The translations under genes and the position numbers were made by a program. A stretch of DNA of 64,000 bases from Octopus vulgaris. Its lineage: Eukaryota. The notes below the pieces were generated by a model. That model saw nothing but the letters and a program-made list of their open reading frames with translations, was not told where the DNA came from and ran no database searches. The DNA lies in the NCBI GenBank assembly GCA_951406725.2, contig OX597815.1, positions 19,220,001-19,284,000 on the forward strand, in the 5' to 3' direction. How positions within the stretch are numbered: position 1 is the stretch's first letter; the number at the start of each line of letters is the position of its first letter. Positions 22,251 through 54,660 of the stretch are shown in pieces.

Positions 22251-22440
22251 GGGAGACTTTACGAAAAAAACAAAAGACGAAGACAGGTGCTGTACAAAAC
22301 AAACAGATGTATTAGTATAACGCTCAGGAATAGAAAAAGTCTTTTACGTTTCGAGCCTACTCTCTTCTACAGAAAGGGACACAGAAAAAACAAGGAGAGA
22401 AACAAGGAGAGAAAAAATGTGTGTAGTGGCTAACAATCTC
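22251..22440 (-). mobile_element. Short PLE-pLTR-like element, family D copy 1 (HHR-like motif 22341-22376)
   Basis: Homologous to 28193-28320, 52103-52285 and 54508-54660; 3' end abuts (TA)n; minus strand CUUU-CUGUAGA-A-GAGA(GUAG)GCUC-GAAACGUA-AAAG. Confidence 0.7.
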
Positions 22441-23765
22441 TCTCCCTCACTCTCCCTATCTTTCCCTCTCTCTCCCTCTCTCTCTCTCTCTCTCTCTATA
22501 TATATATATATATATATATATATAGCAACTTATCTGCCCAGTACTGCCCTCAATAGGAAATACCGAAGATAGATAAACCTAGGCAGATTGAAAGCCGTAG
22601 CTTTAGCTAAAAACAGTCAATATCAGTTACTGGGCGTTTTTACACCTTTTGCTATAGGACAGATTTTTTTTGTCCGCAGTAACTGTTAAAATACGTCACA
22701 AACCCATGGTAACTAATCTAAAGTTCATTCATTCCTCTTCACCGCCAGGCAATAATGCTGCTATTTCTAATTCGACCTGGTGGTCCACTAGCGCAACTCA
22801 GTCACTGACGTTAAGTGGTTTTAGTTTATGCTATGGCTTTGAATCTGCCCAGGTTTATCTCTCATCGGTAGAAACTAAATATCCAGAAACGCGCGTCTGG
22901 GGATCCGCAAGAGAGAGGCATTGGGCAGTTATGTTATTTTTACATCTTTTATCATAACAGAGATTCTTTCGCCATAGTAACTGCAGTGAGATTGACTTTA
23001 TATATATAACAATGATATTTTTCATGGTTCGCTTAATCTTGTAGGCAAGATTTATTTGTCTTATCTTACTTGAAACGTCATCTGCGGTATAATATACCAG
23101 ACCGTATGGTCAAAAGGTCACCCGATATATAAGCAAACACATGCTCACAAACTTTATTTTCCGACTGATTGTAACTGGCTTCTTTTGTTGCCCTACCTTT
23201 GATTTCTCTGAAGTAGTAAACCAAGTATCAGTCAGCAAATAAATGATTAAGAAAAAAATCATTTTGCGTACATTTTGCGTACATTTGATCGTATCAAATT
23301 TATGATCACATTTTAAGACCTGTAGTTAACACTGTTCAATAGTTCAGCCTCAGATTTTTTATCCATGTACGATTACTACATTGATAAATCGTATTTGTAA
23401 TACGAAGGAATATATAAGCTATAATTCCACAGACCTCGAAAGGCTGAAATAATTGGATTTGTCTGAAAAATCTTGTCCAAAGACAGAAAGTATCATACAA
23501 AAGGCTCCAAATTCCAAAAGACACAGATAGAATTTCAAGATGATTATCAACAGCTTGGATCTTAGGATCTCAGAATCCTGTGGAAGTTACAACGACTATA
23601 GGCACTTATATTAGATAAAATATAAATAAAATATAAATGAAATAGATAAAATATAAGTGTAAATAACGGACAGAGACAAGACTATTGAAAAGGTTGCAAG
23701 ACGCAACGAACATTTTAGGAAAATAAAAATAGGAAAATAGTGGAAATTTTACCGGCAAGTAAACT

Positions 23766-23910
23766 ATGCTGGTGTGTTTACGTCTCCGTAACTTAGCGGT
23801 TCGGTAAAAAGAGACAAAGAATAAGTCCTGGGGTCGATTTGCTCGACTAAAGGCGGTGCTCCAGCATGGCCGCAGTCAAATGACTGAAACAAGTAAAAAT
23901 AGTAAAAGAG
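23766..23910 (+). mobile_element. SINE family S1, 3' half
   Basis: Matches 29586-29745, with an internal deletion. Confidence 0.9.
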
Positions 23911-24884
23911 TATATGTTTCTTTCTTAACCAATCTCATTAGATTATCTTTGACATTCTGCTAGACTAAATATTCAATTTTAATATCACTTAGACAGGTCC
24001 TGAAATAGTTTCGCAGCAAAATTTACCATTGATTATTATGATTAAGAAGAACCCACTGACCAAAAAAAAAAGCAAAAAAAAAAAACAAAAACAGACTGGT
24101 GTTCTCGTGACGAATAAAGAAATACGTTCATAGTCTGGAAGACAACTGTATATAATGAGCGAAATCTGTGAGCTTAAATTGTAGAAAGTTTCCTCTATGA
24201 GTCAATGGGAGATGACAGAAAACTGCACCTGTGATCTTCGTATACAAATCAGCTGGGCTAGCATCGAATGACATCCCTCTTTCACAGTAAATCAATAGGT
24301 TTAATCATCTGCTGATGGATGTCTTAGTAAGACACGTTAAAATCTGACTTCATTCTGCTTACGTGCGATAGATTAAATAACTAGAAAGAAAAAAGAAATA
24401 CATTTTCGCAATGATGAGATATTCTCCGAAAAATAATAACAGTTCTACCGATGGACTAATACAAGTGAGGAGTAAAAAAAAAATAAAAGAACACTAGAAA
24501 GGAGATTCCATTTTTTGTTCTATTTCAAATATTTCACTATTTCTATGACATTCAATATTGCTCATGCTTCGATATTTTATATACATCGCAGATTCAATAG
24601 CAATCAATGGCTTCTGCTAATGCAATGGTATTCACTATTTCGACATTAGTCAAATGTTCGATATTTTTTTTTTTCATTATAATCGAATATTTCAATTACA
24701 TTCATTTATCTGTGTTACTTCAGCATTTTAATGCTGTTCACCACTTCCAGGCTAGTCTGTAATTCGAACTGATTATTGTCAGAAAAAAATTTTCAATGTT
24801 TTATATTGCGAAGGGGAAAGGATAGTAATAAATATAATGTTATCTTTAAGTTGATGTATTATCTACAAAATAATAATAATAATG

Positions 24885-25290
24885 ATATTTCCCAACTTAG
24901 GCAAAGGGCCAGAAAACTTAAGGTTGATAGAACAGTGGATTGTATCGACTCTAGTAGATTACTGGTACTTATTTCATCGACTTGAAAGAATTCTACAATC
25001 CACCACCCTAAGAATGTCAATAAATTTTTAAATAGATATAGAGCCAGAAAGTTGACTTCGGAAAGATTTGAACACAGGACTTAAAGAGCCAGAAAATTAT
25101 AAATATGACCTAACACTTCTGCCAGTAAACTGCAGTCAGTGATAAATGTTTCAAATTTTGGCACAGGACCAGCAATGTTGTGGGAGGAGGTAAGTCGAAT
25201 ACATCGACTCCAGTACTCATCTCATACTTATTTTGTCAACCCCGACAGGATGAAAAGCGCCTAACGTTTTGCCCGGTGTACTTCCCTCAG
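24885..25290 (-). mobile_element. Two decayed SINE family S3 copies
   Basis: Homologous to 26178-26389 (gcacaaggcc, gtcgattacatcgac, ggatgaaaag, atttgaacac). Confidence 0.7.
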
Positions 25291-25659
25291 TAATAATAGC
25301 ACTGGTTGGTTTCTTTGGCTACACACGTCATTGGTATTTATATACATAAACGTAGTGCTTTTATCTCAGAAAGTACAAAGGTGACGTTAGACGAATTTGA
25401 ACATGAAAATTATGATCACGAAGAAGGAAAAATAAACATACTGGAAAAATAAATACAAAAACAAAAGTTATTGGAAATAGTTTAGAAACAGGTAAAAGCA
25501 AACCTCCTTAATATTTAAAGAATTGATCAGAAACAGACAGCTTTACAAACAGAAAGTAAGTAGCAGTGACGAAAGCGTTTTAGAAACAAAAATCATTTAC
25601 AATCAATCAACAGCGACGTATCCCAATTGAATTGTTGGATTAAAGCTGTAATCTGTATA

Positions 25660-52399: not shown

Positions 52400-52720
52400 T
52401 GTACCATCCATCCAGATGACCTACATTGAAGGATGAAGTCAATGAGGATGTTTGTGGTTGCGCAAGTATCCAAATATCCGAGTAGGTATTCCGGTGTGGA
52501 TCTTGTTAGAGTTTTGCAAAGGATCGTTGACGGATCAACACCACAGACTCTTAAAAGGAAATTTTATTCTATGGGATACTGTTTTGACAGTCTACACATA
52601 AACTTCACGAATGATCATCAGCTTGACTTCTAGAAATTTAGCTGCTTGTCGTTCATAACTAAAGTGTATAGAGGGAAGGTAGTTTTCCTGGCATGTGTAA
52701 CGACTGAGTCTCCTATGTAA
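52400..52720 (-). mobile_element. Decayed LINE RT thumb fragment (I/Jockey group)
   Basis: AAKFLEVKL (~KFLGV.LD) and LRVCGVDPSTILCKTLTRSTPEY (~WG.D..TL...YK..IRS..EY). Confidence 0.5.
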
Positions 52721-52989
52721 GAAGATTTCTGTGAATGCATTATGTTTTGTACTTACACTTCATGCTGTTGTTATAAATATTGGTATTGCTAGTGTTTCTG
52801 ATGTTGTTGCTTTGTTTTTACACTTGGGCCTGGTAAGGAGGTATATATACAATGCAATTTGTAAGACGATGAATGGGATTTTAGGTAGGTTTGGCTAGGA
52901 TTTCAAGTAAACTGAGTAACCACGTATAGATTCTCTCGTTCTCTAGTTGGCTCATGTGGTTGAAATCTGCATGAGGGAATCAAAAAGTA

Positions 52990-53538
52990 CGAAGGTGAGT
53001 CAAAAAGTAATGCCATTTTGTTTAGGACAGGTATAATTACCAACACAGGAACATTTATCATACATCAAAATGAAGCTGGTCCTCTGTGGTCCCTACTTCT
53101 CAACATAGTCACCGTTTCTCTCAATAGCCATGTTCCACCTTCGAATGATAGCTTGTAACCCTTCCCTGTAAAATTCTGTTGACTGTTCTTTGAGCCACTT
53201 CTTTACTACAGTTTTCACTTCCTCATCACTGGAATAATGTTTAGCTCTCAAGCCCTCTTTCGTGGCGCCGAAGAGATGATAATCTGAAGGTTCTAAATCT
53301 GGTGAGTGTGGAGGTAGTAAAGAAGTGGCTCAAAGAACAGTCGACAGAATTTTACGGGGCAGGAATACATGCTATCATTCGAAGGTGGAACATTCCTATT
53401 ACAAGAAACGGTGACTATGTTGAGAAGTAGGGATGTGAACCACAGAGGAGCATCTTCATTTTGATGTATGATACATATTCCTGTGTTGGTAATTATACCT
53501 ATCCTAAACAAAATGGCATTACTTTTTGACTCACTCCG
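52990..53538. mobile_element. Non-autonomous mariner derivative built from two inverted 3' ends, TA-flanked
   Basis: Minus strand encodes PPHSPDLEPSDYHLFGATKEGLRAKHYSSDEEVKTVVKKWLKEQSTEFYREGLQAIIRRWNMAIERNGDYVEK*; the right arm repeats VVKKWL..GDYVEK* on plus; arms 52990-53209 and 53314-53538; TA at 52988-89 and 53539-40. Confidence 0.92.
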
Positions 53539-54507
53539 TATTATCATTTGTAGAGGAGTCTGTATTGTTAGAAGTAACATTATATAATTTGGCACTATAT
53601 GATAATAACTGACTTACGGCGCTAAATTTTCTGGTAAAAATATAAATCTTACAAATTCCACCTTTCTTATTTCCTCGGGTTTTCGCTTTTGTAAGGAGTC
53701 AATTTAGAGCAATACTTTTAGAGAGAGACCAACACGTATTCGAATTGCTTTTTATCACTATGTTCAAATCTCCCTAGAGTTAGATTAACTCCTGACCGCT
53801 TTCTGATCGATAATATAAGTAACGGTTGCGTACTGAGTGACAATCGCATATATCACCTGCCCTTGCTGCCGCTGTTCTTTAGTTTATCGGAATAATCGAT
53901 ATATCGAATAGAAATCCATACCTTGTTTTGTTAATCACTGTTTATTAACAACAGTCTTCAATGATAATGTAAATAACAAAGGCAATATTTATTTCCAGTG
54001 CGACAGAATCTGGTGTTCGATTCTAAACAAAGTAGAACATTTTTGTAATCCTGTACATTGGTGGTTTTATTTAAAAAAATAACAACTTTAAAAGACAAAT
54101 TTCTTTTACTGACAGGAATGTGACTAGTATGAAAATATGACAATGTATATTTATTTGTGTAAGGAAAGTTTCGTAAGAACGCAGTGATGAAATTTGTGAT
54201 TCATTATGTATAAGTAATGAGAGGGTAACACCAAGAAAATGTCAGTAGCGGGTGCGTGGATGTGTCTGCCGCAAATATACATGTGACACTGACAACGTGA
54301 ATTCACACGCACACACTCACTCATTCGCGTACATATATACAAATATATACATAAGCATGTACACCTATCTATCTATCTATCTATCTATCTATCTATCTAT
54401 CTATCTATCTATCTATCTATCTATCTCTCTATCTCTCTCTCTCTCTCTCTCTCTTCTCTCGCTATATATATATATATATATATATATATATATATATATA
54501 TACGTAC

Positions 54508-54660
54508 GGAGAATTCACAAAAAAAAACAAAAGACGAAGACAGGTGGTGTAGACAACAAACAGATGTATAAGTATAACGCTCGGGAAGTGAACAAGTCTT
54601 TAATGTTTCGAGCCTACGCTCTTCCACAGAAAGGAACACAGGAAGAAACAAGGAGAGAAA
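54508..54660 (-). mobile_element. Family D copy 4 (HHR-like motif 54598-54633, helix III mutated)
   Basis: Between (TA)n tracts; CUUU-CUGUGGA-A-GAGC(GUAG)GCUC-GAAACAUU-AAAG. Confidence 0.7.

Follow-up and report, generated by a model that had tools for sequence, protein, structure and literature searches.

Four related repeats in a 64,000-nucleotide stretch of Octopus vulgaris DNA (contig OX597815.1, positions 19,220,001 to 19,284,000; the whole stretch is called the window here, and positions are counted from its first letter) carry a motif that is built like the minimal hammerhead ribozymes of Penelope-like elements (PLEs) but fails one of their features, the adenine at core position 6 (A6), and is a variant rather than a plain member of that group. 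A6 is treated as a fixed letter of the hammerhead core and is hard-coded in search descriptors. In the repeats described here, position 6 is uracil (U6). The four repeats are probably PLE-derived and belong to a high-copy family; they are likely to be 5'-truncated ends of Neptune-like elements, i.e. pseudo-long terminal repeats (pLTRs). The account favoured here, with modest confidence, is that these truncated ends carry a weakened, still constrained minimal hammerhead, one that would cleave in cis, as a dimer within tandem master transcripts.

The window is eukaryotic and microsatellite-rich, with a GC content of about 34%. The four motif copies are all encoded on the minus strand:

22341-22376, minus strand: motif copy 1; U6 at 22369; N7 is A; mismatch at pair 10.4-11.4 of helix II (GAGA against GCUC)
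28253-28288, minus strand: motif copy 2, the sole intact copy; U6 at 28281; core CUGUUGA; N7 is U
52196-52231, minus strand: motif copy 3; U6 at 52224; N7 is G; C3 changed to U; 5' arm of helix I lost
54598-54633, minus strand: motif copy 4; U6 at 54626; N7 is G; A16.2 (ACAU, not ACGU); U17

These copies had been located by an earlier sequence-only reading, which left the strand unstated. Searching with a 25-letter core pattern, one mismatch allowed, gave four matches in the window and none in any of 100 shuffles. U6 and an extra A between positions 9 and 10.1 are present in 4/4 copies while N7 varies (A, U, G, G), as that reading had noted, and the G10.1-C11.1 pair is also found in all four. 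The full consensus is found in copy 2 alone, which has a helix I of 4 bp, the extra A, a helix II of 4 bp with a GUAG loop, GAA, ACGU and A17; from hammerhead numbering, its cut site is predicted to lie between 28257 and 28256. The damage described earlier in copies 3 and 4 was seen again, but copy 1 is damaged as well, so that three of the four copies depart from the consensus. The loopless, palindromic ACGU (15.2-16.2) proposed as helix III is present in three copies and is replaced by ACAU in copy 4. Over the four copies, 29 of the 32 cells in helices I and II pair (90.6%).

Minimal hammerheads of PLEs have been described as having no loop 3, a palindrome at 15.2-16.2, an extra base between 9 and 10.1 and a helix I of 4-5 bp; they occur mostly as solo copies, and their monomers were inactive and their dimers of low activity (Cervera and De la Peña, 2014; PMC4209133). 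The dimer model is repeated in a later review (Weinberg, 2019). The motif in the window resembles these hammerheads of metazoan PLEs in the missing loop 3, the palindrome, the extra base, the G10.1-C11.1 pair and the short helix I, and further in its type I layout, its U-rich 5' side, H17, the mostly solo copies of truncated elements and the predicted dimer activity. For Xenopus tropicalis (2), a loopless CGUA end is already on the published list (PMC4209133). The loopless dimer design, the extra base and dimer cleavage are published PLE features, and most of the novelty that the sequence-only reading had entertained for this design falls; U6 remains. Among the PLE motifs listed in the same source, 54/56 have the extra base and 56/56 have A6, which the descriptor required and which does not imply that other letters are absent in nature. 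The nearest listed motif, with a gap-free core alignment, is the pLTR hammerhead of Neptune from Acropora digitifera (PMC4209133, Fig. S3, Table S1). It has the same 4-bp helix II with a 4-nt loop, one pair apart (G-U against A-U here) with its pairing preserved, and the same GAAACGU, but it carries A6 and C17, and its helix I is GCU/AGC against UUU/AAA here, changed on both sides. Descriptors requiring CUGANGA would miss the U6 motif, as had been expected, and an Rfam scan of the window at the gathering score returned no matches.

The motifs are embedded in repeats of about 150-190 nt, which are 79-89% alike in pairwise comparisons over 100-156 nt. These are solo copies spaced 2.4-24 kb apart, and no tandem units each with a hammerhead are seen in the window:

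22251-22440, minus strand: copy 1 of the element; 3' end adjoins a short (TA)n, 5' end runs into (GA)n/(TA)n
28190-28345, minus strand: copy 2 of the element; about 80% like the other copies, a separate subfamily; ends in (TA)n
52103-52285, minus strand: copy 3 of the element; lies between 15-bp direct repeats
54506-54660, minus strand: copy 4 of the element; (TA)n on either side; reference for the contig alignment
52088-52102, no strand: left direct repeat of 15 bp, resembling a target-site duplication; 15/15 identical to 52286-52300
52286-52300, no strand: right direct repeat of 15 bp, partner of 52088-52102 around copy 3
28346-28830, minus strand: C/A-rich stretch upstream of copy 2, about 500 nt, with a 167-aa open frame without a Pfam match; may be further element sequence of copy 2

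Copies 1, 3 and 4 have a common 3' end point, and copy 2 ends about 33 nt sooner; the segment absent from copy 2 is possibly the 'tail' of a PLE. The 3' ends of copies 1, 2 and 4 are at (TA)n. The 5' ends are staggered, with copy 4 beginning about 27 nt upstream of the motif and copies 1-3 weakly alike farther upstream. This arrangement is compatible with retrotransposition products that were truncated at the 5' end, carry a PLE-type tail and had a microsatellite as target. PLEs have been reported to have 30-40-bp tails and a bias to insertion at microsatellites, the bias being ascribed to Neptune and Naiad (Craig et al., 2021). Such a bias is seen here in the (TA)n at three of four 3' ends and in the loose ends of contigs from all three DNA sequencing runs described below, but it is common to Neptune and Naiad and hence is not diagnostic of Neptune. 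The assignment to Neptune-like ends is suggested by the common 3' ends at (TA)n together with the likeness to the Acropora Neptune hammerhead. A common 3' end together with staggered 5' ends would be left by truncated copies of an autonomous as much as of a non-autonomous parent; of the earlier proposal of a non-autonomous, PLE-mobilized family, the high copy number and the probable PLE origin are supported, and non-autonomy is one of two options. The Naiad group was also compared: three element words of 11-12 letters had no match in the available supplement of Craig et al. (2021), which gives Naiad consensus ends with line breaks that can hide words, and four words of 8-9 letters matched there in unrelated-looking places only. 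The visible 3' end of Naiad_Obim is unlike the element. In an octopus repeat annotation, PLEs account for 6.83% of that genome (Bonar, 2026); no text on ribozymes was found in the accessible part of that report, and a search of its supplement gave no sequences of the U6 motif.

The family-wide variation of the motif was drawn from public sequencing runs. The element is present in runs of five organisms, and four of the 24 listed runs were analysed by aligning contigs to copy 4 with a likeness threshold of 80% and a variant cut of 2%. The contigs placed numbered 17,535, 18,762 and 13,472 in three DNA runs from three organisms and 1,029 in run X5, which is only guessed to be RNA; summed depth is not taken as copy number, and no claim of expression is made from run X5. 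The high abundance suggested by the sequence-only reading is thus borne out in each of the three DNA runs. All shares given below are depth-weighted contig values, which are unphased, biased to the reference copy 4 and dependent on alignable contigs. At position 6, only U is found in 4/4 runs, which places A6 below 2%. In contrast to this fixed letter, N7 takes all four bases (G 44%, A 20%, U 20% and C 16% in run X1), which extends the pattern of the window, N7 varying beside a fixed U6 and extra A, to four runs of three organisms. At N17, the letters A, U and C occur (74, 24 and 2% in run X1; 30, 62 and 8% in run X9), and no row for G17 was found in the four runs at the 2% cut. No variant at 2% was seen in any run at 24 of the 36 motif positions, including C3, G5, position 6, G8, A9, the extra A, G10.1, A13, A14, A15.1 and U16.1. 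Outside CpG sites, the only motif positions with a minor share of at least 10% are N7 and N17, both of which hammerheads leave free. The pattern suggests that hammerhead-type constraint persisted after U6 was fixed; with A6 below 2% and four alleles at N7, N7 would have diversified on a U6 background. In 3/3 DNA runs, the loose contig ends continue into (TA)n on the 3' side and into more element sequence on the 5' side, and in run X9 the flanks differ on both sides of the motif, as several subfamilies with one core.

In the favoured account, the element would be inserted into (TA)n by target-primed reverse transcription, and two motifs in one tandem transcript would swap strands, with ACGU pairing to ACGU and each helix I shared. 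The RNA would be cut after position 17, and likely only in this two-copy fold. U6 would lower the rate, yet would be tolerated in the lineages that spread, and the solo copies in the window are likely to be inert.

Several results weigh against this account, beginning with the properties of the shares as stated above. No pair of helices I and II is altered on both sides among the four copies, so that the covariation named as a check by the sequence-only reading was not found; nor was an excess of conservation by count, positions with a minor share of at least 10% being 4/36 in the motif and 7/68 in the 3' flank. Close tandem copies, which that reading had also proposed to look for, are rare in these contigs: records fitting two places of the stretch numbered 0, 1, 1 and 0 per run, although one record of run X1, joining 54660 back to 54594, is a possible short tandem pair. 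A16.2 makes up 13-28% of aligned depth and G16.2 70-87%, while U15.2 reaches just 5-7%, and many copies would therefore lack the palindrome. The A16.2 share is higher than at most other CpG sites (1-19%) and goes beyond reference bias, because private letters of the reference appear at only about 0-9%. The U4A core form (window position 54628) reaches 5% in run X9 and is below 0.3% in the other runs. Published work on core changes points the same way. The natural variant A6C had low activity (Perreault et al., 2011; PMC3088659) and was much slower in Mg2+, being rescued by Mn2+ (Naghdi et al., 2020; PMC7151607), and in a full mutational scan activity was low for every single change of the CUGA turn (Roberts et al., 2023). 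By analogy, U6 would likely slow cutting. Finally, 125 frames of the window were scanned against Pfam (124 of at least 65 aa passing a complexity filter and the 167-aa frame beside copy 2); 0/125 reached the cut-off, with neither a reverse transcriptase nor a GIY-YIG domain found, and the PLE parent and its clade are proposed from motif layout and ends in place of a parent open reading frame (ORF), which for Neptune would combine a reverse transcriptase with a C-terminal GIY-YIG domain and a CX2-5CxxC linker. As a separate observation, U4A in run X9 may mark a second core-variant subfamily.

The damaging effect of published CUGA-turn changes also speaks for the reading that the motif is a dead relic: A6U would have inactivated the ribozyme early, and the PLE lineage would have spread on, the sequence being kept as an element end needed for other reasons. 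This explanation, rather unlikely but the main alternative, would account for A16.2 and U4A, whose shares resemble subfamilies spreading with a broken core. It agrees with the reported spread of Naiad PLEs without canonical hammerheads (Craig et al., 2021) and with Xenopus retrozyme dimers, 8/9 of which failed to cleave when assayed (Li et al., 2026). A dead motif, however, gives no reason why variation should sit at N7 and N17 and avoid G17. The folding predictions can be taken in either direction. For copy 2 with U6, positions 4-6 are predicted to pair with 15.1-16.2 in a non-ribozyme hairpin with a probability of 0.82-0.98, against at most 0.14 with A6, in keeping with a relic; but the hairpin depends on N7, falling to 0.32-0.38 with G, and is missing in a natural U6 copy of the coral type described below (0.02).

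The same pairing permits a stronger version of an active motif, in which a fixed A6U core is kept active in a very high-copy family of several related animal species, the U6-A15.1 pair locks monomers off, and the dimer is slower or has a changed metal preference, as with A6C and Mn2+. This version is doubtful. Beside these predictions stands a stretch of (C/U)GAGC about 20 nt downstream of the motif (28229-28234, minus strand, in copy 2, and in the same place in the other copies), which could pair with G12 and the 3' arm of helix II, a pairing that the C/U change leaves intact. By folding, helix II has a probability of 0.6-0.98 in intact contexts, and no switch via (C/U)GAGC was demonstrated.

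The sequence-only reading had further suggested that dispersed transcripts might pair in trans, which corresponds to a short non-autonomous family whose abundant transcripts cleave as intermolecular dimers. The abundance in the DNA runs and the solo copies in the window are compatible with this, and non-LTR retrozymes have been proposed as non-autonomous PLE derivatives (Li et al., 2026). The trans double-hammerhead fold, however, is predicted to be less stable than two folded monomers by 7.7-8.0 kcal/mol, or by 17.5 kcal/mol when longer flanks are included, which leaves the suggestion without thermodynamic support; the objection is a weak one, as a natural A6 motif is likewise unfavourable as a trans dimer (13.7 kcal/mol), A6 and U6 motifs are not distinguished by their nearest-neighbour dimer energies, and the energy model ignores tertiary energy. 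Three of the four copies are damaged, there is no fixed 5' end, and even in cis, dimers of the published minimal hammerheads cleave slowly (PMC4209133). Cleavage in trans is therefore considered highly improbable.

Nearly as improbable is an origin outside PLEs, or another role for the block, for instance as the tail of a SINE-like element or as a splice acceptor that follows a pyrimidine tract, with a mere resemblance to a hammerhead. No parent ORF was seen among the window frames, the 15-bp direct repeat is also compatible with a LINE-type insertion, and a pyrimidine tract lies ahead of the core, within which copy 1 reads YAG. The AG, however, depends on N7 and is lost in most N7 alleles, and the splice-acceptor reading was rejected on that ground. 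The remaining core letters all agree with a hammerhead, as do both helices and the pattern at N7 and H17, and the layout is nearly identical to that of the published Neptune hammerhead. The favoured reading of truncated Neptune-like ends with a constrained minimal hammerhead is accordingly retained in preference to such a role.

U6 was also sought outside the family. In metagenome contigs, the U6 pattern gave 26 loci, none of them of the window's family. Eighteen of the 26 are of the coral-type (Acropora Neptune) family, or 17 distinct loci since L019 repeats L018; the other eight, which are GC-rich and without helix I, were set aside as chance matches. In four coral-type loci, all six sibling matches that were not picked by the U6 pattern carry A6, the U6 copies of this family being solely those that the pattern selected, and U6 thus looks sporadic in the coral-type family against fixed in the window's family, as judged from these contigs. 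A Pfam scan of nine frames from coral-type loci gave no reverse transcriptase or GIY-YIG domain, and the U6 pattern had no match in viral contigs. In one coral-type locus (L010, about 1875-1995), tandem partial hammerhead units of about 19 nt, consisting of core and helix II, precede the full motif.

A natural change at core position 6 is known from the A6C hammerhead of phage Bcep176 (Perreault et al., 2011, PMC3088659; Naghdi et al., 2020, PMC7151607), but there the letter is C, not U, and the motif as described is a single one in a phage, not a high-copy family of the dimer type. Non-LTR retrozymes likewise have a type I hammerhead in a short repeat and a proposed PLE origin (Cervera and De la Peña, 2020, PMC7229834; Li et al., 2026, bioRxiv 10.64898/2026.07.22.740005); they are reported as tandem units each with a hammerhead, in contrast to the solo copies with staggered 5' ends found here. 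No U6 hammerhead was found in the literature search, which covered search listings and the papers cited here; this is a weak negative, since the search left Lünse, Weinberg and Breaker (2017; RNA Biol 14:1499) uncovered, the paper where core variants, U6 perhaps among them, would most likely be listed; a term search in the available text of PMC11014351 gave no match.

A family with U6 fixed and with N7 and H17 free offers a natural experiment on whether cleavage is required of PLE minimal hammerheads. Cleavage by a U6 dimer would mean that the range of tolerated cores is wider, that counts of ribozymes in animal genomes are too low and that censuses requiring CUGANGA overlook whole families. 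If such a dimer does not cleave, a PLE lineage spread with a dead ribozyme. Either outcome is of specialist interest and would not amount to a new system.

Other features were observed elsewhere in the window. At 2540-2592, on the minus strand, a second, unrelated hammerhead-like motif has the canonical A6 in its core; its helix II is 4 bp long, its helix III is small and palindromic, and the motif is slightly degenerate. It lies about 140 nt upstream of (TA)n and is possibly the end of another PLE family. At about 29396-29476, a perfect palindrome of about 80 bp carries CUGAUGA...GAAA on each arm; more inverted arms extend it as far as (TA)n, and it may represent either a foldback element or a PLE end in inverted arrangement. 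Short frames without a Pfam match at 95-529 and 59820-60215 are presumably similar to C-terminal remnants of LINE reverse transcriptases. Two SINE-like families, 75-90% alike, lie near each other three times:

9442-9644, 23766-23907, 29545-29748 and 50397-50587: SINE-like family one
9715-9883, 29100-29268 and 50644-50803: SINE-like family two

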